A DNA stretch of 64,000 nucleotides from Octopus vulgaris. Taxonomy: Eukaryota. The notes under the pieces are model-generated. The model did no database searches, was not told the DNA's origin, and saw only the letters and a program-made list of their open reading frames with translations. Below, piece by piece: positions 85-40,750 of this stretch; the stretch's first letter is position 1, and each line of letters starts with the position of its first letter. The translations under genes and the position numbers were made by a program. The stretch spans positions 23,870,001 through 23,934,000 of the forward strand of contig OX597838.1 of the NCBI GenBank assembly GCA_951406725.2, given 5' to 3'.

Positions 85-150
85 AATGATGTAGACACCT
101 CTGATGAGAACCCAATAAGGTTTGAAAATTGATTAAGGTTGTTCATCATT
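85..150 (+). ncRNA. Minimal type-I hammerhead ribozyme motif
   Basis: ACCT-CTGATGA-GAACC(caataa)GGTTT-GAAA-ATTGAT-TA-AGGT. Helix I ACCT/AGGT with distal AATGATG/CATCATT; near-palindromic helix III. Confidence 0.75.
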
Positions 151-204
151 TTTTTCAGTCTGCGGAGAATTGGCTAAATTTTGCCCTGTTTATAATTTTA
201 CCTA

Positions 205-588
205 TGGCGCTCCGTTGGTCATGATGACGAGGGTTCCAGTTGATCCAATCAATGGAAAAACCTGCTCTTGAAATTAACGTGCAAGTGGCTGAGCATTCCA
301 CAGACTCACAGACGTGTACCCTTAACGTTGTTGTCAGGGAGATTCAGCGTGACACTGAGCGTGACAAGGCTGGCCCTTTGAAAATATAGGTACAACAGAT
401 ACAAGAAGAGTGAGAGAAAGTGTGGTGAAAGAGTACAGCAGGGTTTGCCATCGCCCCCCTTATGGAGCTTCGAGGAGCTTTAAGAGTTTTTGCTCAATAA
501 ACACTAACAATGTCCGGTCTGGGAATTGAAACTGCAATCCTATGACCGCGAGTCCACTGCCCTAACCACTGGGCCATTGTGCCTCCAC
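205..588 (-). mobile_element. tRNA-derived SINE (same family as 61317-61705)
   Basis: Minus strand begins GTGGAGGCACAATGGCCCAGTGGTTAG (A box) with B-box-like GTTTCAATTCC; body colinear with the 61317 copy. Confidence 0.85.
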
Positions 589-1548
589 ATAATTGTACCA
601 TATGTTACACACACACACAGACACACACATATGTATGTGTGTGTGTGTGTGTACAACAATAACAACAACATTCTAAAGAACACTCTTCATATGCTTATAT
701 ATTTGTAATGTAACAGTTGTCACAGTGTGTGTACCAGCCCTGCACATGTTCCTAAGGTTAGCTAATATCATGCCCCTTCATATCCTCCCTCCTACTTCTC
801 ATTCAACATATTCAACCCCTGCCAGAATTAGGTACTTCAGTTAATTTTTTTGGTTTGATTTTCCCCGTGTTTTTTATTTTTATTTTTCTGCTTGCTTGGT
901 TGATTTCACGATCACCTAAAACTAAGATATCTCAGAAATAACTGAAGCAAGAATGCATATTTTATTTTATTCTTTTGATAATTATTTAGTAAAATGAATA
1001 AAAAAAATATGCATTTATTGTTTTTTTTTATTTATTTATTATTATTATTTTTTTTTTTGCTTTCCTGAATGTTGCTTTTATGAAATATAATGTAGTCCTC
1101 CATCAAGCTCTATTCAACATTCAATATGTCTAACACTGAGCATGCTACTTATGTTGGGAATATGAAAAACGAAATCCAATAGAATTATAGGGTTTTTGTG
1201 AAACAAAACAAGAAAAAATTTTTAATGAAAATGAATACTGAAATAATATAGAAATATGTTCAGGCAAAAACACACACACACAAAAACATACTTGCATACA
1301 GAAGCATGTTGAGATAATAAAGTAAAAACAAAAACAAGAAAAGTCTGTTGTTTGCTGAACTCGCTATTATAGCAATGAAAGAGGGAGAAAGAAATAGAAA
1401 CAAATATATATGTGTATGTGTGTATATATGTGTGTGTGTGTATATATATATGCATGTATATGTGTCTGTATATATATATATATATATGTGTATACATATA
1501 TGTGTGTGTATATATGTGTGTATATATATATATATGTGTGTGTGTATG

Positions 1549-1591
<43 letters not shown>

Positions 1592-2398
1592 GTTAAGGGA
1601 AAAATCTATGTACTTCAGGAAAGAGAACTACTTTTTCTCTTTTTTCTCTCAGTGGAAGAAAAAAGAGAGCAGTATTCAAGGTAAGCTATTGATGTATTGA
1701 TTGGTCTACCAACTGATACATCTCGAGTTCAAATCCAGCAAACATGCAAACAGGCATGGGCTGGGTGTTTAAGAAGTTTGCTTTACAACCACGGGGTTCA
1801 GGGTCCAACCTCGCACTGTGATACCTTCTACTGCAACTCTAGGTTGACCAATACCCGGTGAGTGTAATTTGGTAAGCGGAACTGTGTAAAAGCAGTGATT
1901 GTTTGTGTGTCCCTCTCTTATATATATATATATATATATATACACACGCAAACACACATATATACACGCATACATATATATATCATCATCATCACCATTT
2001 AAATGTCTGTTTTCCATGCTGGCATAGGTTGGATGGTTTGACTTGGGACTGGCAAGCCAGTAGGTTGTGCCAGGCTCCAATCTGATCTGCCAAGGTTTCT
2101 ACAGTGGGATGCTCTTCCTAATGCCAACCACTCCAAGAGTGTAGTGGGTGCTTTTTACATGCCACCGACACAGGAGCTTGTTGGAGGAGAAACTGGCATT
2201 GACCACATTTGGATGGTACTTATTACGTGCCACCAACACGTGTGCCAGCCAGGTGGCACTGGCAACAGCCACAACTATATATATATATATATATATATTT
2301 GTTGAAATGGAAAGATGTGGCCTTTGAAACATGTGTAGAATGTAATAAAAGGAATTCTGTACAATCTTCGTTCAACTCCATTTCTTCCATTCACTAAT

Positions 2399-2434
<36 letters not shown>

Positions 2435-3729
2435 TGCAAACACACATATATATGCACACATACATATACGATTGTATGCCAGGTGAAATGCTTAGCAATA
2501 TTTTGCCTGCCCTTATGTTCAGAGTTCAAATTCTGCCGAGGTCGACTTTGCCTGTCATCCTTTTGGGGTCGATAACTTAAGTACCAATTGTGTACTGTTG
2601 TCGATCTAATCAACTGGCCCCCTCTCCCAAAATTTCAGGCCTCGTGCTTAGAGTAGAAAAGAATAGTCAACAGCCTCTGATTTTAACATTTATTTCCTTA
2701 TGACACCCATAAACTAATGTAATATAAAAAAAAAAATGTCGCCCTTTTCAAGCCTAGCTAGGCTCATGGGCTTGGTTTCCCAGTTTCCCGGTTTCTGTGG
2801 CATATGTGTTCTCCCCAGCTGGACGGGATGCCAGTCCATCGCAGCATTACTCAAGAAACCAGAAGAAAGAGTGAAAGAAAGTTGGGGTGAAAGAGTACAA
2901 CAGGGTTCACAACTACCCCCTGCCGGAGCTTCGTAGAGCTTTTTTAGGTGTTTTTGCTCAATAAACACACACAACTCCCAGTCTGGGAATCGAAACTGCA
3001 ATCCTCCAACCACGAGTCTGCTGCCCTAACCACTGGGCCATTGCGACTCCACAAACTAATGTAATATAGTTGGGATTAATGTTTATGCAATTGCTGTTGT
3101 TCATGTTCTTGTTGTTGTTGCCTATCCTCCCCTTCACCACCCTGCTACACACACACACAAACACCCTGGTCACCTTCTGATAGAACAAGTCTAATGAAAA
3201 CTGGTTTTAATTCTCATGCAGGTATAACAGAATTGCAGATACGTCTCACTTATCCCAAAGGCAATGATGATGACAATGACGATGATGCTAATGATGACAA
3301 TGACAATGATGATGATGATGCTAATGATGACAATGACGATGATGATTATGATGACAACAATGATAATGATGACAATGACAACGATGATGATGATAATTAC
3401 AAGAACAGTAAAGATGGGGATTATGATAATACTTAAATTGTACTTTATTCTATTGACCCCGAAAGGATGAAAGGCAATGTTGACTTCAGCAGTATTTGAA
3501 CTCAGAACATAAAGAGCTGGAAGAGACGCCACAAGGCATTTTATCTAGTACATCGACAGTTTTACTAGTTCACAACCTTATAATACTAATAATAGTAAAT
3601 GCCCTGATGCAGTAGCAGGCAGTGGCTCTCATGGCTTCTGATCTTAACTGACTGGAAGTGTTATTGTATATACTGTTTTGTCTTGGTATAAAAGATGGAC
3701 TACAGCAAATATTCTGCTCAATAATGCAG

Positions 3730-5075
3730 AATTTCACCAAGAACATCATCTTTCTTGCTCACCACTAATCTTCCATAGCTTGCTAGTTGTGGAACATTGA
3801 CTGATTCTGTTGTTCAACGAGAAGAAGGCACTGAGTGCCTAGTGACATTCCAGAATCCAGGCACCCTGTCTCAGTTTTTTGCTTCACTCAGACCTGCAGC
3901 TCCATCAAGGAGGCAAACTGTGGAAAGACATGCCTCAGGAACAGTGCTCGCAAAGGTTTACCATCAAGGAATCTCCGCAGGTGGCACCCACTGGCACTGG
4001 CTCTCCATTAGTTAAGAAGACAAGGGTTCCAGTTGATCCAATCAATGGAACAGCCCGCTCGTGAAATTAACGTGCGAGTAGCTGAGCACTCCACAGACAT
4101 GTGTACCCTTAATGTAGTTCCCAGGGAGATTCAGTGTGACACAGAGTGTGACAAGGCTGTCCCTTTGAATTACAGGTACAGTTCACTTTTGCCAACTGAG
4201 TGGACTGGAGCAATGTGAAATAAAGTGTCTTGGTCAAGGATACAATGTGCTGCTGGGAATTGAACTCATGATCTTATGACTGTGAGCTGAATACCCTAAC
4301 CACTAAGCCATGTATCTGCACACCAGCAGCCACGTGCCTGCAGGTAGTACAGCCTCAACATGTGGCTGCATGCCAGCAGCCATGGGTCTGCAGGTAGCAC
4401 AGTCTCAACATATGCATGCACACCACCAGCCATGGGTCTACAGGTAGCACAGCTTCAACATGTGGCTGCACACCAGCAGCCATGGGTCTGCAGCTAGCAC
4501 AGCCTCAACATGTGGCTGCATGCCAGAAGCCACAGGTCTGCAGGTAGCACAGCCTCAACATGTGCCTGCACACCAATAACCATGGGTCTGCAAGTAGCAT
4601 GGCCTCAGCATGTGCCTGCATACCAGCAGCCACGGCATATCTAAACTGCTGTGCAGAGGGTGCTGGCACAAGATGGACCACCTAACCAGTGGACCATATC
4701 CTTTCTGCAAGAAATTGAATAACAGAGACTCCAATTTCATCAGATGGTAACTAAGCTAAGGCATGAAGGTCAGGCAGTAAACTCTAACGGAAATGACATA
4801 GGCATCCGCCACTTCTATCTACCTTTGAGGGACAGCCTCCACTTGGTCCATTCCAGGGTGAGACTGGAATCCCTATTTGCACCTTGTCTCAGTTTCAGTC
4901 CACTTAGAGGTTGGAACTGACCAAGCTCCAAGCGGTTTAACTTGTTCATCAATCCAATGTCCCACAATGCCATTTGATGGCATGGACCTACTTCTACAGA
5001 TTCCCAGCTGCAAGCCCACCGACATGTCCATATTGATCTTCACCTCTGCCATCAGCTCATATTCCCTTACAATTA
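3730..5075 (-). pseudogene. Degraded Tx1/L1-clade LINE ORF2 fragment, interrupted by a SINE and a minisatellite
   Basis: Translations KINMDMSVGLQLGICRSRSMPSNGIVGHW and GAWILECH...GRLVVSKKDDVLGEI align by eye to KINREKSVGLQLSTWIGKSMPSDSVVGRW and SEWHKECR...GLVESECDDGLGAI of the LINE at 56-58 kb. Confidence 0.8.
4308..4633. repeat. 50-bp minisatellite, about 6.5 copies
   Basis: CAGCAGC-like start recurs at 4324, 4374, 4424, 4474, 4524, 4574 and 4624. Confidence 0.95.
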
Positions 5076-6289
5076 TTTTTACCAAAGGCGTGGCTGTATG
5101 GTTAAAGAGATTGCTTCCTAACCACATGGCTCTGGGTTCAGTTCCACTGCATGTCACTTTGAGCAAGTGTGTTCTATTATAACCCCAGGCCAACCAAAGC
5201 CTTATGAGTGGATGTGGTAGATTAGTAAGGTAAGGTAAAGGTAAACTGATATGACACTGCATTGACACACAACCGCAGAAATTGTATTCACCTCAATAGA
5301 CGTCATTGATTGGTTGAAATTGCTGAAATGCAAGAAATTTAACAAGAAATAGTTTACAAAGTACAGAATTTTCTCACGAAAGCCAAGAGAGAAAGATGTT
5401 TTATGTAACACACTACCAGTATACGAAGTTTAAAAGTATTTAGTTAGAAAGAAATTATTTTAAAAATTTGCCGGTCAAAGTGAAAAGATCCAAAAATTGT
5501 TCAAATATTCTTTGGACAAACAAGGACAGACAAACGAATTAAGTCGATTACATTGACCCCAGTGCATAACTGGTACTTAATTTATCGACCCCAAAAGGAT
5601 GAAAGGCAAAGTTGACCTCGGCGGAATTTGAACTCATAACGTAACGGCAAACGAAATACGGCTACGCATTTCGCCCGGCATGCTAACGGTTCTGCCAGCT
5701 CGTATTATAGAAATATAACCAGTTTATTGCAAATAAATTTTAACAACAAAATCTTATGTGGACTCCCCACTATCACCACCATCAAGGGCCATATAGACCC
5801 AAGATGAGAGCCACTGTGTTAGATGGAAACTAAAAGAAGCCTTTAGCATATGTATAAGTATGTGTATGTGTGTGGGGGTTGTGCCGTCTCCTTGTCTTGA
5901 CATCGTGGGATAGTTGTAAATGAACATCACCGTCATACAAGCGGGGTAGTTTGTTTCAAAACCTTCTGTGGAAACATGTCCAGCCGTGGGGAAATATTTA
6001 CCTTGCTTGAAAACCATGAATGTTGGTGACTAGAAGGGCGTCCAGCTGTAGACAATCTGCCTCAACAAATTTTGTCCAAAGCATGGAAAAGTGGACATTC
6101 AATGATGATGATGATGATGGACACAAAGACAGAAATTTTGGCAGTGATGGTGGAAGGTGTACAGTTGATTATATCGACTGTAGTGCTTGATTGATACTTA
6201 ATTCTATTGTGAAAGATGAAAGTGGATGCTAAATACCACAAGGTATTTTCGTCCGACACTAACGACTCTGTTGTAATAATCCTGGTAAT

Positions 6290-6810
6290 AATAAGAATGA
6301 CGATGAAAATGCTGCTGCTACTGATGATGATGGTGGTGGTGGTGATGATGGTAGTGATAATGGTGATGGTGATAATGAAGAAGAGAAGGAAGATGATAAT
6401 GATGATGGTGGTGATGATGGTGGTGGTGGTGGTGGTTGTGGTGGTAATGATGATGGTGCTGGTAGTGATAATGGTGATGGTGATAATGAAGAAGAGAAGG
6501 AAGATGATAATGATGATGGTGGTGGTGGTGGTGGTTGTGGTGGTAATGATGATGGTGATGGTGATGATGATGGTAGTGATAATGGTGATGGTAATAATGA
6601 AGAAGAGAAGGAAGATGATAATGATGATGGTGGTGGTGGTGGTTGTGGTGATAATGATGATGGTGGTGGTTGTAGTGGTAATGATGATGATGGTAGTGAT
6701 AATGGTGATGGTGATAATGAAAATGATAATGATGATGGTGGTGCTGATGATGATGATGATGGTGATAATAATGGTGGTGCTGATGAAGGTAACGGTGATG
6801 ATGATAAACA
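6290..6810. repeat. Compound (GAT/GGT)n microsatellite with a higher-order repeat
   Basis: Recurrent ATAATGAAGAAGAGAAGGAAGATGATAATG blocks within triplet repeats. Confidence 0.9.
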
Positions 6811-8284
6811 TGGCAAATGTGAAGTCGTGTGTTGATTAATTTTTCTCTTTCACCCTCTCCATCTTTCTTTAAACTGTTCAGTTGCAATGAGCAGTCGTTT
6901 AAAGAAAGACGGTGTGTGTGTGTGTGTGTGCATGAGTGTGTGTGTGTATGGACGGGGGGTAGCGTTTGGTGCTGGGAGTGAAAAAGGAGGGAGAAAGCGT
7001 GGAAACAACTTGTTTACGCATAACGAGATAATGATTTTTCTAGAGTAAAGAATTAAGAGAGAGAATTATTCCACTGATTTCCCAAGATACTCCAGACATT
7101 TGTTTCCTCCAGTAAAATTTACCGAACTTCAATCTAATTCCTCCAACCACCACCACCACCACAACCACTACCACCTGTGCATAAGTGTATGCATGCGTAT
7201 GCACGTGCGTGTGTGAATGATTCTGTTGTTTTTAAACAACACCTTCTTATCATTTGCACAGGTATTTGTGCTAATTACAATTTTATTTTCTTTCTTTAAA
7301 CAAACAAAAGCTGAAAATTAACAAAAAGAATGAAAAGACGAGATAAAATTGCAAAATAAATTAAAAATAAAAAAGAAAATCTCTATGAATTATTCAAAAT
7401 TTTCTTCTTTTTTTTTTTTGCTTTTTAATATTTTTACCTTTTAAAGTTCCCTCAGGTGAACCGAGTTAGGCAAGTGCAACAAAAACAACCAACAAAAAGA
7501 TCTGCATATCATCATAATTATCCAGTTGTTTTATTTTTATTCCATGCTTTCGCTGAACATAGCTCAGCGGGCCGTAGGTATACGCTGTGATGTTTTAGCA
7601 TTGTTATTTTTACTGTATTAAAATGGTGTTGAGATAACCATTATTATTATTATTATTATTATTAGCGCCGCCTCGACTGGCTTCCGTGCCGGTGGCACAT
7701 AAAATACACCAATCTGACCGTGGCCGTTGCCAGCCTCGCCTGGCACCTGTGCAGGTGGCACGTAAAAAGCACCCACTACACTCACGGAGTGGTTGGCGTT
7801 AGGAAGGGCATCCAGCTGTAGAAACATTGCCAGATAAGACTGGAGCCTGGTGCAGCCTTCTGGCTTCCCAGATCCCCGGTCGAACCGTCCAACCCATGCT
7901 AGCATGGAGAACGGACGTTAAACGATGATGATGATGATGATTGAGGAGGAGACCCCCATCAGTCATGAATGATCATGGGATTGTACCTAGAAAGTTACCC
8001 TCAGAGGCACAAGTCTGGGCAAGATTGTTTTTGTGGAAGGCTAGCAGTTGCCCATGCATACCAGCCTTTCCTCTCCACACCACTCCTGTTATCCAAGGGA
8101 AAGGCAGAGGCTGATACAGCTTGGCACCAGTGACGTCGCAACTCATTTCTACAGCTGAGCTAACTGGAGCAATGTGAAATAAAGTGTCTTGCTCAAGAAC
8201 ATAACACACAGCCTGGTCTAGGAATCGAACTCACAACCTCACGATTGTAAGCTCGATGCTCTGACCACTGAGCCATGCACCTTC

Positions 8285-8697
8285 ACTATTATTATTATTA
8301 TTGGCAGCAAGCTGGAAGAATTGTTAGCATGCTGAGCGAAATGCTTAGTGATATTTCGTCTGCCGTTACGTTCTGAGTTCAAATTCCACCAAGGCCGACT
8401 GTGCCTTTCATCCTTTCGGGGTCGATAAATTAAGTACCAGTTGAGGTTCTGGGGTCAATGTAATCGACTGTCCCCATCCCGCCAAATTTCAAGCCTTGTG
8501 CCTATAGTAGAAAGAAAGGATTATTATTGGTGGCGAGCTGGCAGAATCGTTAGCACACCAGGCAAAATGCTCAACAGCATTTCATCTGTCCTTACATTCT
8601 GAGTTCAAATTCTGTTGAGGTTAACTTTGCCTTTCATCCTCTCAGGGTCGATAAATTAAGGACCAGTCAAGTACTAGGGCTTGTGCCTATATTAGAA

Positions 8698-8729
<32 letters not shown>

Positions 8730-9303: not shown

Positions 9304-10838
9304 TTGGGTCATCCCATAAATAATGCAGTTTTTCTATACTTCTTTTATTTTTCAAAATTAATATAAACAAAGTTCTTTTTTAATCTAAAATATACTCTCC
9401 TCCATTTTCTACGATAGTCTTCCATCTATTCACTTGTCTGTGACAAAAAAATACTCCTCCAGTACTGTTCTGACCTCATCTACAGAATTCATATATTTTC
9501 TGTCCAAGTGATTTTGAAGACTGTGGAGAATAAATGATAATCTGATGTGGCAATGTCCAGTGAATATGGTTGGCAAGGCATCGTTTTATATTCTAACTAC
9601 TCCAGCCTTTGGAAAGTCATGCTCGCTGTATGTGGCCGAACATTATCCTGATAGAAGGATTATTTTTTGTTTGTTCCTTCTTGAGCCATGCCTGGCTCAT
9701 AAGGGCTGGTTTCCTGGTTTCAATGGCATATAGGTTCCCCACCTGGACGGGACGCCGGTCCGTTGCAGGTGAGCTGCAAGATGCAGGAGGAAAGAGTGAG
9801 AAAAAGTTGTGGCGAAAGAGTCAGCAGAAGTTTGCCATTACCTTCTGCCGGAAGGCCATGTGGAGCTTAGGTATTTTGCTCATAAACACACACATCGCCC
9901 GGTCTGAGATTCGAACCCGCGAGTCCGCTGCTCTAACCACTAGGCCATGTGCCTCCACACCTTTTATCTTGAAACCAAACATGGTAATCTTTCTTCTAGC
10001 ACTGACTTAAGGCACTTAAGCTGCTTGCAGTAGATCTTTGTTATTTTTGGTTTGGGTTTAAAAGTCCAAAGCGGACTAAACCTTTCTTATCTCATCAAAC
10101 AGATAACAACACTTTATGTGGGTGAAGATCTTTAGGCTGGGGTGCCAGTGTTTCTCCTTTTCCTACCCACTGTCTTTGGTGCTTGACTTTTTTATAGAGA
10201 ACCCATTTTCTATCACCAGTCACTATTTGGTCCGAAAAAGGTTCATTTACGAGACATGACAGCAAAGAAGAGCACACATTCACTTTTTGCACACAATTAG
10301 ACACAGAAAGTTTGTGAGAAACCCATTGACTCGATTTTCTGACTTTTCCGATGGCATGTAGGTGTCAATGAATGGTTGAATGATCAAATCCATGCTTCTC
10401 TGCTAGTTCCTCAATAGTTACAGTGGGATTTTGTTCCACCAGGGTTTGCAGGACGTCCTTGTTGAGCCCTACAGATCTTCCAGGACAAAGCTCATCTTCT
10501 AGGCTGTAGTTTCCGGCTCGAAATTTCTGGAACCACCTTTGACACTGGTTTACGCTTATTGTCTGATCCCGATATACTGCATTAATATTCCTTGCACTTT
10601 CCATTGCGTTGTTGCCTTTATTGAACTCATAAAGCTAAATATGCCAAATGTGCTTCTTTGTCACTTCCAAATGACTGTTAAAATCAAACTGCAATCTTCA
10701 AAATTTGCACTAAGAATAAGAAGAAGGTAAAATTACTACCTGCATGTATAGCAAGTTGATGCAGGTAGTTTATCCTGTCCCCCTCTAACTTTTAGTTCAT
10801 GCAACTGAAAAAACCGCATTATTCATAGGATGACCCAA
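9304..10838 (-). mobile_element. Mariner transposon, full extent, transposase pseudogenised
   Basis: TIRs TTGGGTCATCCCATAAATAATGCAGTTTTT / AAAAACCGCATTATTCATAGGATGACCCAA flanked by TA; fragments QRWFQKFRAGNYSLEDE..GR (HTH) and IVTGDRKWVLY...HPHKVLLSV (catalytic region); frameshifts and a SINE insertion. Confidence 0.93.
9662..9958 (-). mobile_element. tRNA-derived SINE nested in the mariner
   Basis: Minus strand GTGGAGGCACATGGCCTAGTGGTTAGAGC...GGTTCGAATCTC (A and B boxes). Confidence 0.85.
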
Positions 10839-11159: not shown

Positions 11160-11209
<50 letters not shown>

Positions 11210-11228
11210 GTATATATATAGAGAGAGA

Positions 11229-11366: not shown

Positions 11367-11417
<51 letters not shown>

Positions 11418-14236: not shown

Positions 14237-14757
14237 CCCTTTAGTGTTTAACCTGGCCATGTCCAGCTGAAATATTCTACAGGTTTTACATTCAAATTGG
14301 CTATATCTAGCCTCTTACACCTAACCTACATCGACATTTAAAAATAAACAATCACATCATTGAAACTTCAATGCTAATAAGATAATGCATGATTAATTCT
14401 AAACAATTTGAGTGAAAAAGCATTACATTTAACAGAGCCCACGGGCATATGGTGTAGTGGTTAAGAGCACAGGCTACTAACCCCAAGATTCCGAGTTTGA
14501 TTCCAAGCAGTGACCTTAATAATAATAATAATGATGATAATGATAATGATAGCATCAAAAATTACCTTTGGAATGAGAACCTAGGTTTGAAATTTCCCCA
14601 AGACACCTGATGAAGGCTAGAGGGTATATCAGCTGAAATGTGTTAACAACAAACACGATGAGGACAAATATCCGTCAGATGTAAATAATGTATATAATTC
14701 CTCATCTCTTAAATATAGAACTGTAGTATTTAACAGAGCGATCTGAACACTAAAGGG
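14237..14757. mobile_element. piggyBac-type MITE
   Basis: Perfect 12-bp TIR CCCTTTAGTGTT / AACACTAAAGGG, flanked by TTGA and TTAA. Confidence 0.85.
14439..14727 (+). mobile_element. tRNA-headed retroposon carrying a hammerhead motif
   Basis: A box TGGTGTAGTGG, B box GAGTTTGATTCC; GACAC-CTGATGA-A-GGCT..AGCT-GAAA-T-GTGTT at 14602-14644; 12-bp TSD ATTTAACAGAGC (14427-14438 / 14728-14739). Confidence 0.75.
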
Positions 14758-20575: not shown

Positions 20576-22018
20576 GATAACGTTTTTAATTAATTTTTTT
20601 CTTCAATTCAGCTGCTGAGATCTCTTCACTGGTGGGGGAACCATTTAATTTTTTTACAGTACCAGCTTATTGGGAGATCCCAAAAATCAAATAACTCCAA
20701 CCAATCAGTAAACAAACAAATTGGTTGCTCTCTTTACAACAAAAAATTTCGCCTTGCAAGTTTTTCCTCAAACTGTGATATCATTCCACATTTTGCCTAC
20801 AAAGTGTAGTTTGTCACCTGTCATACCATGTGTAGTTTTCGCTGTTTTTCTTAACATAGGTCTCCCTATTTTCTTCCATGTGTTGGTGTTAATGATTGAA
20901 GTATCACTACCTGTATCCAGTTGTAATTTTATATTTACTCCATTTATTTTACAGGTACAAATTTCCTTATTTGGGAGTCAATTTTACTTTCTGCTGAGAG
21001 CACTTTGGAATTTTTAACATTTGACCCTTGTAGTTTTGTTCTGCAGTGTGAACTCTTGTGTCCAAATTTTTAACAGCTGTAACATTTTTGGTTTTTAAAA
21101 GGACAATCTTTTCTGAAATTCAGGCCTCCACATCCATAACATGGATTAGGACCTAGCAATCTTCTTTGGTTACACTTTCTTGGTCAACATATCAGTATTT
21201 TTGCAAAATCCGTTTTTTGAATTTTTTTTATATCATGTTTCAGGTTTACTATACTTTGATACTCTTCTGCAACAGTCTGCAAGTTTCAATCTTGGTCGTT
21301 GCTTCAAGTTTTGAAAGAATTCTTGCCCGTATTTCTGTATCTTCATTTGCTGTAAGGCCCTGTACAAAAACGAAGAGTTAAAACATCTCAGGGGTAAGTT
21401 CTTCAAGTTTAAAACTTTTACACATTCTGTTGACTGTTTCTGCATATATAATAAAGTCATCATCCTCTTTTTTATTAAATTCCAACACTCCATTCGAGTA
21501 TTAAAGAAAGAAGTTTTATCACCGAATATGTCAGATAGTAATTTGATTGTTTCCTGAAAAAAAATTTCACAAGACTTTTTGGGTAATATGAAACTACAGT
21601 GTTGTTCACACTCAGATGAAGCTAATTTATGTAATAATAACCTTACTTTTACTTCGTCTGACCATGTCTTACAATCTTCCTTAAAAATCTCCTTGTACCT
21701 TCTACATTGCAAAAGTTATACCCTCTTCTGGGGCATAACTGAATTCCATAATCGAGTTCAATATGCTGTCTGGTGAAAATGAACTTAACGCATTTACAGA
21801 CTTCCTTGCATAGAGTTCCAATAATTGTTGTTGTTTTAGTTGTTGCTGTTCTAGTTGCTTCTGCAAATCCTGTTGCTGTTCTTGTTGTTGTTTTTGCAAC
21901 TGTATTATAAAAGCTAATAGGTCTTCCATCATTTAACAAGTCGTATCACTAACAAATTGTTGAATAACCTACGTGAGCTTCAAAACCCTCATCGCCACAT
22001 GTATCCTCCGTCTCCAAA

Positions 22019-22351: not shown

Positions 22352-23150
22352 CATCATCATCATCATCATCATTTAACGTCCGCTTTCTATGCTAGCATGG
22401 GTTGGACGGTTCAACTGGGGTCTGGGGAGCCCGAAGGCTGCACCAGGCCAGTCAGATCTGGCAGTGTTTCTACAGCTGGATGCCCTTCCTAACGCCAACC
22501 ACTCCGAGAGTGTAGTGGGTGATTTTATGTGCCACCGACACAGGTGCCAGACGAGGCTGGCGAACGGCCACGCTCGGATGGTGTTTTTATGTGCCACCGA
22601 CACAGGTGCCAGACGAGGCTGGCGAACGGCTACGCTCGGATGGTGTTTTTATGTGCCACCGACACAGGTGCCAGACGAGGCTGACGAACGGCCACGATCG
22701 GATGGTGTTTCTTATGTGCCCACAGCACGGAGACCAGTCGATGCGGTACTGGCTACGGCCACGTTCGGATGGTTTTCTTGTGTGCCACCGGCACTGGTAC
22801 CACAAAGATACAAATTCCATTGATCTTCATCTATTTTGATTTGATTTGATTTGATTTTCACTTGCCTCAACAGGTCTTCACAAGTGTCACAAGAAGGAAG
22901 GAAGGTATGCACAGGTGAACTGACAACGTCCCAGGTAGGGGCCACGGGTTATGGCCTGACTAGTCTTGCCGGGTCTTCGGATGATGTTTTTATGTGTCTC
23001 CGACACAGGTGCCAGATGGATGGTGTTTGTTACGTGCCCACAGCACGGAGGCCAGTCGATGCGGTACTGGCTACGGCCACGTTCGGATGGTTTTCTTGTG
23101 TGCCACCGGCACTGGTACCACAAAGATACAAATTCCATTGATGTTCATCT
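22352..23150 (-). mobile_element. (GAT)n-tailed SINE family member with internal 62-bp tandem units
   Basis: GCCACC recurs at 22531, 22593, 22655; minus-strand tail TTGGCGTTAGGAAGGGCATCCAGCTGTAGAAAC...GGACGTTAAA(TGA)n shared with copies at 7665-7940, 24160-24325 and 37960-38275. Confidence 0.8.
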
Positions 23151-23253
23151 ATATATATATATAGAGTTAATCCAAACATGAAAACACAACAACGCGAGGA
23201 TGTGGAACAAATATAGTATTATTGGAGGCTCAGGAAGGAAGGGAAGAAGGAGG

Positions 23254-23288
23254 GTTTTACGTTTCGAGCAAAGCTCTTCATCAGAAAC
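23254..23288 (-). ncRNA. Ultra-minimal type-I hammerhead ribozyme motif
   Basis: Minus strand GTTT-CTGATGA-A-GAGC(ttt)GCTC-GAAA-CG-TA-AAAC: intact core, helix I GTTT/AAAC, palindromic ACGT helix III; lies in a ~190-bp island flanked by (TA)n. Confidence 0.85.
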
Positions 23289-23368
23289 ATAGGAAAAGGA
23301 AAGATTCAGAGAAGAGAAGACGGAGGAAAAAAGACTTGCCAACGGTACAGTCACATTATATATATATA

Positions 23369-28931: not shown

Positions 28932-28968
<37 letters not shown>

Positions 28969-29067: not shown

Positions 29068-29103
<36 letters not shown>

Positions 29104-30695: not shown

Positions 30696-32141
30696 TATAT
30701 ATATATATTCTTTTACTTGTTTCAGTCATTTGACTGCAGCCATGCTGGAGCACCAGCTTGAGGAGTATTAATCGAACAAATTGACCCCAGGACTTATTCA
30801 CATTGGTGTTGGTACTGGTGTCGTGTAAAAAAAATACAATCGATGGTGCCACTGAAAAACACCTAGTACACTCTGTGGAGTGGCTGGCATTAGGAAGGGC
30901 ATCCAGCTGTAGAAATAAAGCCAAAGCAGACTATGGGACCTGGTGTGGCCCCCTGGCCTTACCAGTTCCTGTCAAGCCACCCAACCCATCTCAATTTAGA
31001 AAACGAACGTTAAATGGTGACAATGTGCATATGTGTGTGTCTGTCTTCCCCTTTTCTTGATAATTGCTCAGTGGTTACAAACAAAGTCACCAGTGAAAGA
31101 AATGGTGTCATTTGTTTCATATCTTGGGTAAAAACACGGTCAGCCATTGAGTTTAATCCTTCTTTGAAGAACTGGGGGAAATGTTACCTATTTGTATTAC
31201 CTCACCTTCAAAACAGGTTTAGGGTCGGTGACAGAAAGAGCATCCAGTTGTTGAAAACTGGTCCACAAAACTTTTCTCTAGTGTATGGAAGCCTTGACAA
31301 GTGGACATTCAAACAGTGTTTTGTTAAGGTTATTTCTACAGATATTCTATATAAATTATGGCCAGCTCTTGTTTTTGCTACAACACCGATTCAAACAGTG
31401 GTGGTGGTGATGATGATGTATGGAAGCAAAAAAAAAATAACATTTGGAAATTTATTTTGATATTCCACATTCATTTCAGAACGTCAACCAATTTCCACAG
31501 AAAACCAACAAACTGTAAACTTTGAATGACAGAAATGAATGTATGTGTGCGCGCATATACATACTTACATACTTATACACAAACACACACATATACATAC
31601 ATATATCAATTTAATACACAACCGAAAGAGCCACCAAGTTTCATGCTTCTATGATACCCTTAACTAGGCATATTTATAAATATGTATCTCCATGTATCTC
31701 CAAGTATCTCCAAGCAATCTTTCAGGCTTTGTTTACGCATTACATATTGTATAAATATGTCTATTTAAAGTATCACAAAAGTATGAAACTATCAGTAGTT
31801 CTTTTCAGTTTATTTTATTTTTTTTATCTAGTTTCAGCTCACAAGCTGTGGCCATGCTGGGGCACCGCCATTTGTTGTGTATTAAATTGATATTTATCTC
31901 TCATTGGATGGGGCACATTGTTTTTTTTTTTGTTGATTCTACTTATATTGGATTTATAAACTACACACACACACACACACACATTTAAACATACATCATC
32001 ATCATCATCATCGTTTTTACACAGAAACCAACAAACTATATACTCTGAATGATAAAAATGACTGTTTGTGTGCGCATATACATACATATATACTTATACA
32101 CAAACACACATATATACATACATATATCAATTTAATACACA

Positions 32142-32213
32142 ACATCGGTAGTATAGTGGTAAGGATCCCCGCCTGTCACGTGGGAGACTGGGGTTCGATT
32201 CCCCACTGAGGAG
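32142..32213 (+). pseudogene. tRNA-Asp(GTC) retrocopy fused to a SINE/LINE-type tail
   Basis: TAGTATAGTGGTAAGGATCCCCGCCTGTCACGTGGGAGACTGGGGTTCGATTCCCC is close to metazoan tRNA-Asp; anticodon GTC at 32175-32177; acceptor stem mismatched. Confidence 0.85.
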
Positions 32214-32670
32214 ACATTTTTACTTAACGGCGGTGCATCAGCATGGCCACAGCTCTGAGCTGAAACTAGAGAAAAAAAACAAACCGAAAGAACTACTATT
32301 AGTTTCATGCTCCTATGATACCTTAACTAGGCTTATTTATAAAATATGCCACATATCTCCAAGCAATCTTTCAGGCTCTGTTTATGCATTACACATTTTA
32401 CATACCATCATCAAGTGGAGGCGCGTGGCTTAGTGGTTAGGGTGTCAGCATCATGATCGTAAGATTGTGGTTTCGATTCCTGGACTGGGCAACGCGTTGT
32501 GTTCTTGAGCAAAGCACTTCATTTCATGTTACTCCAGTCCACTCAGCTGGCAAAAATGAGTAACGCTGTGATGGACTGGTGTCCTGTCCAGCTGGGGAAC
32601 ACATATGCCATTGAAACCGGGAAACCGGGCCCACGAGCCTGGCTAGGCTTTAAAAGAGGGCACATTTATT

Positions 32671-32836
32671 GTGGAGGCACATGGCCTAGTGGTTAGAGCA
32701 GCGAGTTCGCAGTTGAGGGATCGCGGGTTCGAATCTCAGACCGGGCGATGTGTGTGTTTATGAGCAAAACACCTAAGCTCAACGTGGCTCCAGCAGAAGG
32801 TAATGGCGAACTTCTGCTGACTCTTTCGCCACAACT
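32671..32836 (+). mobile_element. 5' half of a tRNA-derived SINE
   Basis: A/B boxes; colinear with the 9662-9958 copy up to CCACAACT, then ends. Confidence 0.85.
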
Positions 32837-33204
32837 GGTAACGGCTCAAAGAGCCATGGAAAGGTCAATGCTTGGTATCTCGTTGAGAGAACACATGAGT
32901 AGCGAGATCATCAGAAAGAAGTACGGCGTGAGAGATGTCATCGCAGAGTATACACGCAGCAAGTTTAGATGGGCTGCACACGTCGCCCGACTCACCGATA
33001 ATTGGTGGATCCGTGCAGTTGTCGAGTGGTACCCGCGCGAGCGGAAACGACCACCCGGAAGGCCTCCACGACGGTGAAGTTACGATTTCAGGAAGACGAT
33101 TGGGATCACATGGATGACAAAGGCGTGATCCAGAGAGGAGTGGATAGCGTGCTGTGACCAGCGGTGTCAAATGGACGCCCGACGGACTGGTCGGTCAAGG
33201 TGAT
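32832..33204 (+). pseudogene. RTE-clade LINE 3' fragment
   Basis: QRAMERSMLGISLREH...SKFRWAAHVARLTDNWW..VVEWYPRERKRPPGRPPRR, the typical RTE C-terminus. Confidence 0.9.
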
Positions 33205-33526
33205 ATATATATATAGATATATATTAAACTATGGTTGCAGAACAAACAAATATAAGGTCATCCACGTAACATTTCATATTTCGAACATTTAATCACATAA
33301 TGATTTTTCTTTCACATAGAATATACATGCATAAAATCACAGAAGATGAAACACAACCCATCAATACAAGCATATAAGAAAAATGTGTGAATACAGTCCA
33401 TCGCGATTAAAAGTTGATGGTTAATACTTTAGCGGTCCTATTAAACATTTAGCGATCTTATTAAACATTTTGTTCCTGATAAGAAACAATCACTTTATTA
33501 TTGATATTTATATATATATACATATG

Positions 33527-33577
<51 letters not shown>

Positions 33578-33590
33578 TATACATGTACAT

Positions 33591-33984
33591 CAGCAATGTG
33601 CCACCTAGGTAGGCTTGGTAGGCAGTGCCTACCTTGAATAAAATAGATGGAAAGCAACATTTTCCATTTACAGCAAAACATGGACCTAATTTAATAAAAT
33701 TATGAAGGTTACTCTGATTACTATGCATAAAATGCAAAATATTTTATTTTTTTTGTAGATTAGGTAGGCATAATGTACCCCTGTTTTTCAATGTCAGTAT
33801 TTAAGCTATACATAGTACTGCTGCATACACTCCTAAAACACCATTTTCTTTACGTGCTATAAAGGCTGAAATATATCTGCTTTCAACTCAGTCGTATGCC
33901 CATGTTTCACTTATTTTTTGTGCATTTTACTACATAAAGGTTACCAACTGCCAACCCTGAGTAATTACTGATGGCACGTGCCTG
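33591..33984. mobile_element. hAT-type MITE
   Basis: Imperfect TIRs CAGCAATGTGCCA / TGGCACGTGCCTG; 8-bp TSD ATGTACAT / ATGTATAT. Confidence 0.7.
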
Positions 33985-33991
33985 ATGTATA

Positions 33992-34024
<33 letters not shown>

Positions 34025-34050
34025 TTGTAATATGTGACAATTATTCAGTA

Positions 34051-34120
34051 GCCATAATAAAACTCTGAGTTCCGAATGTCAGGGTGGAAATCCACACCAC
34101 CATCTCTTCAGTTATACGGC
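34051..34120 (-). ncRNA. Type-I hammerhead motif, degenerate (GGAA for GAAA)
   Basis: Minus strand GCCGTATAA-CTGAAGA-GATG...CATTC-GGAA-CTCAGAG-TT-TTATTATGGC; helix I GCCGTATAA/TTATTATGGC. Confidence 0.6.
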
Positions 34121-34177
34121 CATCGGAAAAAATGCTATGAAAATATATATATAAATATTTAAATCATAAATATTTAA

Positions 34178-34245
34178 ATCACCTGAAGAATGACTGTAAC
34201 TCGAAATTTTAAGAATTGGACAGCCATGAAACGATCGTAGTGTTA
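34178..34245 (+). ncRNA. Minimal type-I hammerhead ribozyme motif
   Basis: CAC-CTGAAGA-ATGACTGT...ACAGCCAT-GAAA-CGATCG-TA-GTG; palindromic helix III. Confidence 0.8.
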
Positions 34246-34454
34246 TACTAATTATCTTTTTTTAATAATTTTGATATATATTTAAAATAATATAAATTAA
34301 TTAATCTTATGTATTGGCTTAAGTTTTTCATTGTATGATTTGCCTAATAGTGGTTTTATCTCTAATTTAATATAATATAATATTTTACTATAAAATTGGA
34401 TTCAATCCTAAATCTGATTTTTCCCTGTAAGTTTGGATTTATTCCCTAATATTT

Positions 34455-34489
<35 letters not shown>

Positions 34490-35041
34490 TGATTTATACA
34501 TTAAATTAATAATAATATACATATGTATAAATTATATATATATACATGTGTATATATATTTACATATATATACATATATACACACACATATATACACACA
34601 CATACATATATACACACACACATACATATATATATACACACACACAGATATATATATATATATATTTTAATTATATTCAAAAGAAGCAAGGGCTGAGAGC
34701 TTCATGCATTGGCAAATTCTATGTCAACAGGTGTCTCATTGTATATTTTTCTTTTTCTCCTGCCTCCTAGTTCTTTTTATTTCCTATCCTTTCATAAAGG
34801 GTTTCATCCTGAACATTAAATTCCCTTCTGTTTCCTCCTTTGTAGCATGAAGCTTCATTGTACACTTCTGTGTTTGATGAATTTCACTTTATATTTCTAC
34901 TCTTTTAAAGCATGTGCTTTTGCACCTTGCACTCTATTATTTGTTGGTTGCTTTCCTTCAAATTTTACAAATCGTATTTGTATAGCACACACACACTTAT
35001 TATCATCATCGTCATTTAACTTGTGTATGTTTGTGTGTGTG

Positions 35042-35080
<39 letters not shown>

Positions 35081-35104
35081 AAATAGATAACAGATGGATT
35101 GTAA

Positions 35105-35191
35105 TTCACTACAGCTGTTTCAGACACGGTTTTTATTGATGAACATATGTGTTATATCATGCAAAAAAACATAACCTTTTCATCAGGTGAA
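35105..35191 (-). ncRNA. Type-I hammerhead motif (inverted partner of 35309-35393; helix II eroded)
   Basis: Minus strand TTCAC-CTGATGA-...-GAAA-CAGCTG-TA-GTGAA. Confidence 0.7.
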
Positions 35192-35308
35192 TACAATTAA
35201 GAAATAAACATTTCATTTTCAACTCTCTGAATGAATTTGGGTTGGTAGAGTCAAATGGCACAATACACTTGTTCTTAAGATGTTCAAAATATTTAATTCT
35301 TATCTGTA

Positions 35309-35393
35309 TTCACCTGATGAAAACGTTTTTGTATTGCATGATGTAACACTTCTGATCATCAATAAAAGACACGTCTGAAACAGCTGTAGTGAA
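35309..35393 (+). ncRNA. Minimal type-I hammerhead ribozyme motif
   Basis: TTCAC-CTGATGA-AAACGT...ACGTCT-GAAA-CAGCTG-TA-GTGAA; perfect helix I, palindromic helix III. Confidence 0.85.
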
Positions 35394-35414
35394 CCATAAT
35401 CCATCTGTTGTTAT

Positions 35415-35597
35415 TTGTCTAACCTTCACAGTTCCAGTGATGGATTGGATCTGTAGTCTTCGAATTAGTTTTCTCCTTTCTTGTTTTGAGAAATCTAATT
35501 TCTCAAGATTGGTATTTAGGCAGTGTGTTACATACCCTAGTTCCACAATAATTACAGATATAAACCTGAACTTGTAATCTGGATAGAGTAACTGCAG
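35415..35597 (-). pseudogene. C-terminal fragment of a restriction-like-endonuclease non-LTR element (R4/Dong-like)
   Basis: [23 protein letters not shown]...LEKLDF...LIRRLQIQSITGTVKV resembles the P(V/I)IIGxLG...LQ...GT.KI end of RLE domains. Confidence 0.6.
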
Positions 35598-35649
35598 TAT
35601 ATATAGATATACACATAAATACACACACATGCACATATAAATATATATA

Positions 35650-35685
<36 letters not shown>

Positions 35686-36163
35686 TATACACACACACAC
35701 TCCTATACATATACATGTGTGTATATATATACATTTATACATATACACATATATAATACACACATATGCATACATATATATACACACACACATAGATAAA
35801 TATACATATATATATGCATATATATATATGTATATATGCATATATATATATGCATACATATATATATATATATATATACAGATATATATATACATATACA
35901 TAAATAGATACATTCGTATATATACATAAATAGATACATTCGTATATATACATACATATATAAATTCGTATATATACATATGTATATACGTTCTTATACA
36001 TATATATAAACATACATTTATATACATATTTACAAATACACACATATCTATACATATATATACATACCTACAGATACACACATATATATATAAATATATA
36101 TATACATACATATATACATACACATATACTTATATATATACACACACACATGTATATATATAG

Positions 36164-36210
<47 letters not shown>

Positions 36211-36631
36211 TATACATACATATATACACATACATACATATACATATGCATATATATATACATACATACCTATATATATATATATATATACACATACATA
36301 CGTATATATACACATACATATATAAACATAATACATATATATATATACACATACTTACATATATATACACACATACATATATAAACATAATACATATATA
36401 TACACACATACATATATAAACATAATACATATATATACACACATACATATATAAACATAATACATATATATACACACATATATATATATACACATACATA
36501 CATATATAAACATAATACATATATATATACACATACTTACATAGATAAACATAATACATATATATATACACATACTTACATTGATAAACATAATACATAT
36601 ATATACACACATACATATATAGACATAATAC

Positions 36632-36687
<56 letters not shown>

Positions 36688-36940
36688 TACACATACATAT
36701 ATACACACATACATATAATATATACACACACACACATATATATATACACACACACATATATATATACACACACACATATATATACACACACACCCACACA
36801 CACACATTTACAATGATTCCTACTTCTGATTCTACTACTACAGCTACTATCACTACCAATAATAGTAGTAGTTGTGCTGAGAGTCATACTAACTATTATT
36901 ATGATAATGTTATTTGCTACGACTTTAATAATACTACTAA

Positions 36941-37626
36941 TAGCTGCTGCTAGTACTATTGCCACTACCACTACTACAAATAATAATAATAATGATAATA
37001 ATATTTATAATAATAATTACCAAAATATATTGAAAATGGATCATATAACATTAATTTCAATAACAGCAACATCATACAAACAAATTCAAGTAATTTATGT
37101 TATTGTTGAATAAAAATGTCTTCGTCCTTTAAATAGTAACTGTCTTGTGTAAAACATGATTTAGAAATACTCCATCCATACTCACCAAAAAAACATATCA
37201 ATATATAGGTATTAAAATTCTGAAATTTAAATTAAGATACTATAACCATATTTCTTCTTTCAAATATAAAACTAAATCTAACAACACTAGCTGCTGCTAG
37301 TAGTACTGTAACTACCACTTCTACAAATAATAATAATAATGATAATAATAATAATTACCATAATAATATTGAAAATGGATCATATAACTTTAATTTCAAT
37401 AACAGCAACATCATACAAACAAATTCAAGTAAATTATGTTATTGTTGAATAAAAATGTCTTTGTCTTTTAAATAGTAACTGTCTTCTGTAAATCATGATT
37501 TAGAAATACTCCATCCATACTCACCAAAAAAACATATCAATATATAGGTATTAAAATTCTGAAATTTAAATTAAGATACTATAACCATATTTCTTCTTTC
37601 AAATATAAAACTAAATATAACAACAC
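36941..37626. repeat. Local tandem duplication, ~345-bp unit x2
   Basis: TAGCTGCTGCTAGTA at 36941 and 37288; bodies nearly identical. Confidence 0.92.
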
Positions 37627-38345
37627 ACCCATAGTCATTCTTATTTAGAAGTTAAAAGGTAAAAGTATAAAATGCACACTATCTTGGTCAATTATTAAAA
37701 ATGTCACTCCGTATAAATCAAGTCATAAATTTTGAAATTTATGTTTATTAGAAAGCAAACTGTAAAAACCATATTAACAAGCACAAAGTATCATTTGATG
37801 CTTACATGAAAAATATAACACATTTTAATACTTTCTCAATAAAATTATTACTATAAAATATAACTTACCTTACTAACTATGACAGATATTATCAATATTA
37901 ATATAACATCTATGTTGTGAGTATATTTGTCTGTGTAGGATGTGTGTATGTGCATATATGTCATCATCATCATTTAATATCTGCTGTCCATGCTGGCATG
38001 GGTTGGACAGTTTGACCAGAGCTGGCAAGCTGGAAGGCTGCACCAGACTCCAGTTTGATTTGGCATGGTTTGTATTGCTGGATGCTCTTCCTAATGCCAA
38101 CCACTCCGAAAGTGTAATGGGTGCTTTTACATGCCACTGGCACAGGTGCCATTTGCATGACACCAGTATCTGCCACAACTGTGATTTTGCTTGGCTTGAT
38201 GGGTCTTTTTCTAAAGCACCACATAATGCCAAAGGTCTTGGTCATTGCCTCCGTGAGGCCTAACACTCAAAAGGAGCTCTCTCTCTCTCTCTCCATGTAT
38301 ATATGTATGTGCATACATACGTATATATGTATGTGTATACATATA

Positions 38346-38575
38346 AGGCGGTGAGCCGGCAGAAACGTTAGCATGCCAGGCGAAATACGTAGCCGTATTT
38401 CGTCTGCCATTATATTCTGAGTTCAAATTCCGCCAAGGTAGACTTTGCCTTTTATCCTTTCGGGGTCGATAAATTAAGTACTAGTTACACACTGGGGTCA
38501 ATGGAATCGACTTAATCTGTTTGTCTGTCCTTGTTTGTCCCCTCTGTGTGTAGCCCCTCGTGGGTAGTAAAGAAA
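38346..38575 (+). mobile_element. SINE with Tx1-like tail and 24-bp TSD
   Basis: TATATATGTATGTGTATACATATA at 38322-38345 and 38576-38599. Confidence 0.85.
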
Positions 38576-38637
38576 TATATATGTATGTGTATACATATAT
38601 GTGTGTGTGTGTATATTTTAGCAAGTTCTAGCTATTT

Positions 38638-38740
38638 ATCACATGAAGAGACACATCTGCACTGTCGGATGCTCCTGAACCAGGTAAGTATCCCACCCAT
38701 GAGAGATCGATGCTAGATGTGTCGAAACAATTGCAGTGAT
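38638..38740 (+). ncRNA. Degenerate type-I hammerhead motif (two core substitutions)
   Basis: ATCAC-aTGAAGA-GACACATCT...AGATGTGTC-GAAA-CAATTG-cA-GTGAT; helices I and II perfect, helix III palindromic. Confidence 0.7.
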
Positions 38741-39077
38741 TAATAAAAATTCTCGTATCTTCCATCTTCTGTCTTTCATTTACCATATATATGTGTGTGT
38801 GTGTGTGTGTGTGTATGCAAGTGTACATGTGTATCTGAGTGTGTTTATCTGTGGGTACATGTATAAGTATATGCGTGTCCCTGTATGTATCACTGTATAC
38901 ATCTTCTTTTGTGTGTATATGCATGCACATCATCAAACCGTCTGTATGTTCATACTTGCACACAATTACAAGATATATCATTGCCTACCTTTGATATTGC
39001 ATGTGCTTAATACTATAAAATGAATGCATATGCAACTGTATATATTCTGTGTATATAAATATATGAGTATAATATAT

Positions 39078-39144
<67 letters not shown>

Positions 39145-39474
39145 TCCGTTTCCTTGTATGGTTTTTATGTTTTCGTTTCTCGTTGTGTAAGTATGTTCAT
39201 ATATGTATGTATGTATGTATGTATGTACGCATATGTTTTATTTATTAAATTGTTATATATATATATATATACTTTTTTTTGTCTGTAATTGCTTATGTGT
39301 CTTAGTTATCTATAATCAAACACACACATCATCATGAATTACACATTCTCTTACTAAGTACAATTTACTTCATCTTATTTCAAAAATATTTTTGATTATG
39401 AAAACAACAATTATAAACTTTGATTCTTTCTTGGTGTGTGTGCATGTGTGTGTGTGCACATCATCATCATCATC

Positions 39475-39513
<39 letters not shown>

Positions 39514-39956
39514 TATGTACACTAAATGTTGCAGTCATGTACAATAAAATGTATGCTTAAATGTATGCGTATATGTGTGTACGTGTTTGCACAAGTGTCT
39601 ACTCACAAAGATGCATAAATGCTATTATGGTTTTAAATATTTCTTGCTTTTTGTCATTTGTTGAAAAAGTGTACACACTTACATCTATCTATATTTCCTC
39701 CTTCCCCCAAGATAAAATTTTGGCTTATTGGTTATTTTTTATATATATATATATATTTCATTCCACATACATTTGTAATTTTTTTCTTGTCAAAATAGTC
39801 ATATGTAACAATTTGTAACCATCTTTCAAATTTAGTGTGTGATGTATGCATGTATGTCAAGGTGTATGAACTTATGTATGGGCGTGTGTGATTGTGTATA
39901 TGCATGTGTGTATGAATATATATGTGCATATATTTGCGTGTGTGTGTGAGTGTGTG

Positions 39957-39999
<43 letters not shown>

Positions 40000-40116
40000 T
40001 TGTATATATTAGTATGTTTGTAAAGATCTACATACATAAACTTGTTGATATCCATCTGAATCTGTACATGTATATCATTTTGTATATCATTATATGTATG
40101 ATAATGCATGCATGTG

Positions 40117-40155
<39 letters not shown>

Positions 40156-40633
40156 CTCTATTTTCTCTTTCTTTTCTATAATTTATCATTTGCTCTTCTT
40201 TCCTTCATCCCCAACTATCGCTTCACTTCATCCAAATTTTTCTTTCCTTTTCCTTTAATTTTTTCAACCATTTGACTGTGGCCATGCTGGAGCAGTGCCT
40301 TGAAGGGTTTTAGTCAAATAAGCTGACCCCAGGACTTATTTTTTAAAGTCTCTTTTTTTTTTCAATCTCTTTTGCCAAACCGCTAAGTTATGGGGAAATA
40401 AACACACCAAAACAGGTTGTCCAGTAGTGATAGGTGAAACAAACACAAAGGCACACATACACACACAGACATATATACACACACAGACATATACACACAC
40501 ACAGACATATACACACACAACAGGCTTCTTTCAGTTTCCATCTACCAAATCCATTCACAAGGCTTTGGTCGGCCAGAGGCTTTAGTAGAAGGCACTTGTC
40601 CAAGGTTCCATGCAGTAGGACTGAACCTAGTGG

Positions 40634-40750
40634 TTGCTTATTTAATTTCTCTGAAGAATTTCTAATAGGCAATTCCTCACATGCCTATCCTTCATGTAAA
40701 ACTCTGTAATTCCTATTAGCAAATGAAACATGTGTAATGGTGAATAGCAA
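40634..40750 (+). ncRNA. Type-I hammerhead motif with long helix II
   Basis: CTGAAGA-ATTTCTAATAGG...CCTATTAGCAAAT-GAAA-CATGTG-TA; helix I imperfect proximally, distal TTGC-TATTTA/TGAATA-GCAA. Confidence 0.65.

Follow-up and report, generated by a model that had tools for sequence, protein, structure and literature searches.

Clustered hammerhead motifs in an octopus genome window: probable relics of Penelope-type retroelements

Introduction

How did nine hammerhead-like ribozyme motifs come to lie so close together in one stretch of octopus DNA, and are these copies likely to cut? The window analysed here is the whole stretch of 64,000 nucleotides (nt) of Octopus vulgaris, positions 23,870,001 to 23,934,000 of contig OX597838.1 (assembly GCA_951406725.2). 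The cluster is a real and known kind of genomic debris that is unusually dense locally. Its nine sites are probably single aged copies, likely 5'-truncated terminal repeats of Penelope-like elements (PLEs) or non-coding retrozyme derivatives, which were likely pasted into the genome by a reverse transcriptase-endonuclease of the Penelope type. They belong to eight motif families.

Detection of the motifs

Hammerhead-like sequence is present at all nine sites of a preliminary description of this DNA (Table 1), which had located each by an edge of the motif; the sites are named here by their first core base, C3. The core is intact and accompanied by three helices in five of them (101, 23284, 34183, 35186 and 35314). 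The type-I core elements CUGANGA, GAAA and UH follow one another in order in these five and in 40651. For the five intact motifs the predicted RNA ends lie just after H17, at 135, 34239 and 35388 on the plus strand and at 23258 and 35110 on the minus strand. Damage is seen at four sites: 34111 has an altered core that is complete in the majority of its family, 38643 carries two core changes (ATGAAGA, and CA where TH is expected), 14607 lacks both the helix III insert and the cleavage base H17, and helix I of 40651 is broken beside the core. The nine motifs are all there as described, but the pattern originally given for them does not fit these four sites as written.

Table 1. Hammerhead motifs and other elements located in the window
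Feature	Position	Strand	C3	Remarks
Type-I motif, intact core	86..149	+	101	helix II insert 16 nt; near-palindrome ATTGAT
Damaged hammerhead-like motif	14601..14645	+	14607	core, extra A and helix II kept
Classic minimal hammerhead, intact core	23254..23288	-	23284	CG insert
Decayed copy, GGAA for GAAA	34051..34120	-	34111	7-nt palindrome, variable centre
Hammerhead, intact core	34178..34244	+	34183	helix II insert 38 nt; palindrome CGATCG
Repeat element carrying the 34183 motif	34167..34453	+		ends at ATT/TA repeats
Left arm hammerhead, intact core	35101..35194	-	35186	helix II insert 58 nt; palindrome CAGCTG
Right arm hammerhead, intact core	35306..35393	+	35314	helix II insert 56 nt; palindrome CAGCTG
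Non-LTR retrotransposon protein end, fragment	35428..35597	-		outside the hammerhead element
Decayed hammerhead	38636..38743	+	38643 (C3 position)	helix II insert 74 nt, very stable; palindrome CAATTG
Hammerhead motif, intact core	40636..40750	+	40651	helix II insert 67 nt; near-palindrome CATGTG
Mariner transposase remnant	10100-10640	-		
LTR (long terminal repeat) element remnant (DUF7083, aspartyl protease)	20770-21950	-		
Two-ORF (open reading frame) LINE remnant (RVT_1, zf-RVT, zinc knuckle)	56400-60350	-		

A descriptor combining an intact CTGANGA, GAAA, a palindrome, TH and paired helices has five matches in the window, whereas local dinucleotide shuffles (60 in number) give 0.067 on average; this descriptor had been loosened once the motifs were known. 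A stricter one gives three matches versus 0.15 (20 shuffles), and the strictest, with 4-bp helices, is satisfied by 101 and 23284 and by nothing in 20 shuffles. The bare word CTGAWGA is not enriched (20 in the window, mean 16.2), and the signal therefore comes from the helices. When one core change is permitted, seven matches are found versus 2.96 (25 shuffles), with 34111 scoring above every shuffle match. When two are permitted, the count is that of chance (37 versus 37, four shuffles), so that the case for 38643 depends on how it folds (z -3.58, matched by 0 of 200 shuffles).

None of these descriptors retrieves 14607 or 40651. Together with the chance-level count at two core changes, this could mean that part of the set consists of look-alikes arising in AT-rich repeat DNA: 14607, 40651, and perhaps 101 or 23284, the depth data described below covering none of these four families. 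Such an origin is highly improbable, as 101 and 23284 pass the strictest descriptor, and 40651 has an intact core, a helix II of -9.4 kcal/mol, a near-palindrome and a TA, all in the correct order.

The other five strand orders of the core have no match, versus two for type I, in a test that needs an unbroken CTGANGA and unbulged helices and would miss split cores. No additional motif was found in the window, the best extra candidate (63498, plus strand) being at chance level (0.28 expected). The hammerhead families of Rfam miss all nine motifs: at the gathering score the sole match in the window is a tRNA, the 44 weak matches at 33900-35450 include no hammerhead, and the best 150 of 516 weak matches window-wide are microsatellite hairpins and one tRNA.

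Architecture of the motifs and their families

The term minimal, used in the preliminary description, applies loosely, as seven of the nine motifs have palindromes of 6-7 nt and six have helix II inserts of 31-74 nt. A CAC/GTG at the base of helix I is common to five motifs. Helix II is closed by G-C in 23284, 34111 and 38643, by G-U in 101 and 14607, and by A-U in 34183, 35186, 35314 and 40651. An extra base after A9, here an A, occurs together with G10.1-C11.1 in 23284; the extra A of 14607 is accompanied by G-U. The long helix I of 101 is bulged, and this motif occupies an island of ~170 nt between repeats resembling short interspersed elements (SINEs). The island of 23284 (~23165-23346) is flanked by (TA)n tracts, and that of 38643 lies between (TG/TA)n tracts. 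Altogether, (TA)n or (TG)n adjoins 23284, 34111, 34183, 35186 and 38643; since microsatellites are dense across the window, this adjacency is weak evidence. Just upstream of 14607, positions 14570-14595 (plus strand) resemble motif 101 from the end of its core through helix II to GAAA, and could possibly be a tenth, more decayed motif; the similarity of the two islands is not significant (z 1.7-2.6).

Pairwise comparison divides the nine sites into eight families. The motifs had been called unrelated in sequence, which holds for the other pairs (z at most 4.1) but not for 35186 and 35314. These two, the only clear kin (z 25-29), form one family and are identical at 111 of 130 aligned bases (85%). 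About eight independent mini-element families had been proposed as well: the number stands, but independent mini-elements are not borne out as opposed to 5'-truncated ends. The 34111 copy is cut off upstream at about 34144, and loose ends indicate that its family continues into further sequence in other copies.

Public contigs were compared with four motifs from three families (those of 34111, 34183 and 35314). In run X1 the summed contig depth, to be read as depth and not as copies, is 1.7e5-5e5 for 34111, 5e4-1.2e5 for 34183 and up to 3.4e4 for 35314; the contig of this locus has a depth of about 39 in the same run. We take this to mean that the three families examined are repeats dispersed in roughly hundreds to thousands of copies; together they may amount to several thousand. 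By summed depth, a high copy number is supported for these three.

In all four runs GAAA makes up 98.5-98.7% of the depth of the 34111 family, and the GGAA found in the window is a private decay of this copy. Where its helix II has G-U, the family mostly has G-C (97% at 34075, 64% at 34081 and 49-79% at 34099), and the base that varies in its palindrome is the central, unpaired one. In 34183 no variant of at least 25% falls in the core, the palindrome or the cleavage site (all 22 variant rows). The AT-rich 3' part of the repeat element that carries 34183 is much deeper than the motif, and loose ends are found at 34144 and 34453. A single two-polarity element comprising 34111 and 34183 was considered and rejected: the depth between them is more than 20-fold lower (about 1e3 at 34152-34166), and no listed piece bridges the two.

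Structure of the two-arm locus

Motifs 35186 and 35314 stand back to back and point apart, their arms spanning 35081-35420. Both arms stop about 30 nt past the predicted cut, the left one at (TA)n and the right one near 35420. Contigs from three organisms cover most of the locus with 1, 4 and 4 differences. This distribution and the 15% divergence of the arms show that the insertion is old.

Next to the right arm, outside the hammerhead element, lies a piece of a long interspersed nuclear element (LINE). The frame at 35428-35597 encodes the C-terminal end of a reverse transcriptase protein (P0045, RVT_1). Its relatives contain RVT_1 and a zinc finger, and this end is covered by no Pfam model. 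The closest protein is from O. vulgaris itself (87% identity); a word-based protein search with the 64-amino-acid (aa) piece gave no match, and in the Atlas it met only unnamed clusters with low recognition. The protein presumably has at its end a restriction-like nuclease, of the type seen in Dong/R4 or Hero. Some of the families, chiefly those with a long helix II, might be the ends of hammerhead-bearing retroelements of another kind (SINEs, or LINEs that have a restriction-like nuclease) copied by LINE enzymes. The adjoining LINE protein end would fit such an origin, as would the ATT-repeat end of the 34183 element and its depth, which rises toward the 3' end. It is nevertheless unlikely. 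In two runs the summed depth of the LINE piece reaches about 1e6, and the piece is 30-50 times deeper than the 35314 motif. Its other copies continue into their own protein end and not into a hammerhead, three runs having 343, 311 and 237 loose ends, respectively, at 35428; the hammerhead was therefore rejected as the 3' end of this LINE. Inverted arms are, moreover, a trait of Penelope (PMC8557442).

Possible origin by Penelope-type insertion

A Penelope-type origin brings these features together. The inverted arms at 35081-35420, the truncation of 34111 at 34144 and the microsatellite flanks are PLE-like, as PLEs are described as having inverted 5'-truncated copies, tails of 30-40 bp and (TA)n targets (PMC8557442). 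When purified, one Penelope-like protein nicks AT-rich DNA on both strands and extends both (PMC11167929), and 31 recently active Penelope-like families are reported in O. vulgaris (PMC13282606). In a model from the literature, tandem copies paired through their palindromes excise a unit-length template (PMC4209133, PMC6765202).

By joining this model to the present loci, a course of events can be proposed. Two tandem copies within the parent RNA would pair via the palindrome to form a helix III of 8-9 bp, and cleavage of this dimer would release a unit-length, possibly circular, template. A Penelope-type protein would then nick AT-rich DNA on both strands and prime inside the RNA. Copying would begin in AT-rich or microsatellite DNA, a little downstream of the motif, and would stop early, leaving truncated islands with short tails. 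Extension from both nicked strands would give two arms pointing apart, as at 35081-35420.

Pfam profiles were searched against the 291 non-repetitive stop-free frames of at least 48 aa in the window, a set from which shorter or more broken remnants would escape. These frames contain no Penelope reverse transcriptase and no GIY-YIG domain, as the preliminary description had stated, and the Penelope link is therefore drawn from architecture. Several further points weigh against the proposed origin. A Penelope reading frame is tied to none of the families, and none was seen in the window or in a metagenome scan, where frames were judged by eye and not with Pfam. In four motifs an A-U pair closes helix II and the customary extra base is missing after A9; the published hammerhead alignment contains exceptions to the extra base and to G10.1-C11.1 (PMC4209133). 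The 34183 element extends ~215 nt beyond the predicted cut versus 30 nt in the arms. Depth, besides not being copy number, is available for three of the eight families. The unphased variant tables show one-sided changes (G-U to G-C), not covariation, and ribozyme activity is predicted from sequence.

Pairing, folding and activity

The helix III of eight of the nine motifs is palindromic and fitted to dimers. Five of the seven distinct palindromes form self-duplexes of -5 to -11 kcal/mol, and those of 101 and 23284 reach -1.2 and -1.7 kcal/mol, respectively; pairing between different palindromes gives -2.7 kcal/mol at best. No motif has a partner of its own family on the same strand of the window. 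Without such a partner and without cross-pairing of palindromes, dimers in cis cannot form here, and the copies probably do not cut in this way. In none of the five intact motifs is the hammerhead the lowest-energy fold of the monomer. In that of 23284, the 5' strand of helix I pairs with GAAACGUA, an inactive form. A transcript across both arms of the two-arm locus would fold into a single long hairpin (-148.5 kcal/mol). Published activity is low: in vitro, no cleavage was seen with minimal motifs as single copies and weak cleavage with dimers (PMC4209133), and one of nine Xenopus dimers cleaved. The copies in the window are thus, judging by their predicted pairing, probably inert relics.

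It might be argued instead that the host has kept the intact copies, which would cut transcripts running through them either as monomers with a helix III of 2 bp or by trans pairing with other RNA of their family. In favour of this, five motifs have an intact core, three organisms share the two-arm locus, and the six-base palindromes could make two pairs and a tetraloop or form self-duplexes of -10 to -11 kcal/mol. This is very unlikely. The damage in four of nine copies and the 15% divergence of the arms fit neutral decay, the predicted monomer folds lack the hammerhead, and neither the single motifs nor eight of the nine Xenopus dimers cleaved in the published assays. No convincing host gene or exon was found among the 291 frames, and because of this the earlier remark that minus-strand copies would be sense to a host pre-mRNA is unsupported.

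Comparison with known hammerheads

The likeness to PLE hammerheads, noted in the preliminary description, is supported. These share with the present motifs a type-I order, a palindromic helix III, a short helix I and a U-rich 5' flank, as well as the occurrence of many dissimilar families, solo copies and opposite-strand pairs (PMC4209133). Cervera and de la Pena (2014) described heterogeneous families, six in coelacanth and eight in Xenopus, mostly as solo copies, and pairs on opposite strands 100-700 bp apart (PMC4209133). Motif 23284 matches the consensus given there. Longer palindromes are also found in its alignment, in Hydra, Aedes, D. willistoni and Saccoglossus, as are an A-U closing pair in shrimp and a CAC/GUG helix I in Lottia and sea urchin. 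The alignment, as far as it is available, includes mollusc members and no cephalopod, and its helix II inserts are at most about 23 nt, in contrast to 31-74 nt here. The loci also differ from those PLE hammerheads in that no linked ORF is present in this window.

Metazoan non-LTR retrozymes resemble the present sequences in being non-coding and low in GC, with type-I hammerheads, dispersed monomers and a proposed Penelope origin (PMC7229834; bioRxiv 10.64898/2026.07.22.740005). Their definition requires units of 150-450 bp that are repeated in tandem and contain a single motif apiece, together with circular RNAs (PMC7229834; Li, Clavereau and Pollet 2026, bioRxiv 10.64898/2026.07.22.740005). 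No tandem unit with a hammerhead occurs among the tandem arrays of the window, nor does a second copy on the same strand. At these loci the tandem trait of the retrozyme class is therefore absent; they are likely to belong to the PLE hammerheads, with no reading frame to link them.

The Poseidon element PAc of Anolis, which nicks both strands at AT-rich DNA and primes internally, would explain the arms and the short tails (PMC11167929). PAc is autonomous and has been assayed in vitro, whereas the loci described here are known from their sequence. Its hammerhead cut only with the protein and was dispensable for insertion in vitro (PMC11167929). If the density seen here holds genome-wide, the octopus offers many families with which to probe the role of the ribozyme in PLEs.

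In this window, which was picked for its motifs, intact copies occur at ~80 per Mb. According to published totals, minimal motifs number ~9,000 in Xenopus tropicalis and over 6,000 in Acropora; the figure for axolotl is 126,247, and giant squid has 235 Rfam matches. The word ribozyme is absent from the available part of the O. vulgaris repeat annotation (PMC13282606). As this kind of sequence has been known since 2014, the main value of the cluster is for annotation.

Only the helix II inserts of 31-74 nt, and possibly the local density, go beyond the published descriptions considered here. Long helix II forms may be covered already by the variants or supplements of Lunse et al. 2017, known here by way of a review. 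No catalogue of octopus hammerheads was found in the literature covered, to which that work does not belong. It is conceivable, if quite a long shot, that the octopus holds the densest hammerhead population known (five intact motifs in 64 kb, which if typical would mean of the order of 1e5), among them a subclass, so far undescribed, with a helix II of 40-75 nt and 6-nt palindromes. The palindrome would in that case serve as a family address: solo copies within host transcripts could be paired in trans by abundant retrozyme RNAs, and the transcripts cut family by family.

The metagenome scan with a degenerate motif yielded 12 loci, one of them convincing (L004) and three related and weak (L001, L007 and L010); the other eight, in gene-dense microbial or phage-like DNA, are read as chance. 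At 1251-1297 (plus strand) L004 contains a clean type-I hammerhead with CAC/GTG in helix I and a palindrome of 6 nt; a 325-codon frame of no recognised kind lies ~120 nt upstream of it. The three weak loci are AT-rich contigs with a core, a 6-nt insert, CAC/GTG and a long, weakly closed helix II. The fragment beside their motif we take to be transposase-like.

Neighbouring repeats

The window has a GC content of 37%, and SINE-like repeats are dense in it along with the microsatellites. The Pfam search over its frames detects remnants of mariner, of an LTR-element protease and of LINE reverse transcriptase (Table 1). A further remnant at 32840-33200 (plus strand) is presumably an RTE-like LINE end. 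A SINE-like family of ~250 bp is present in 13-20 copies, clustered at 43200-46650 and also found at about 10 other places. The GC-richer tandem arrays have units of 50 bp (6.5 copies, 4309-4635) and 62 bp (4.5 copies, 22518-22802), and an AT-rich 339-bp tandem duplication of 93% identity, devoid of a hammerhead core, occupies 36941-37626. A tRNA-Asp(GTC)-like sequence at 32142-32213 (plus strand, 37.5 bits) is solitary amid repeats and is a candidate gene or pseudogene.

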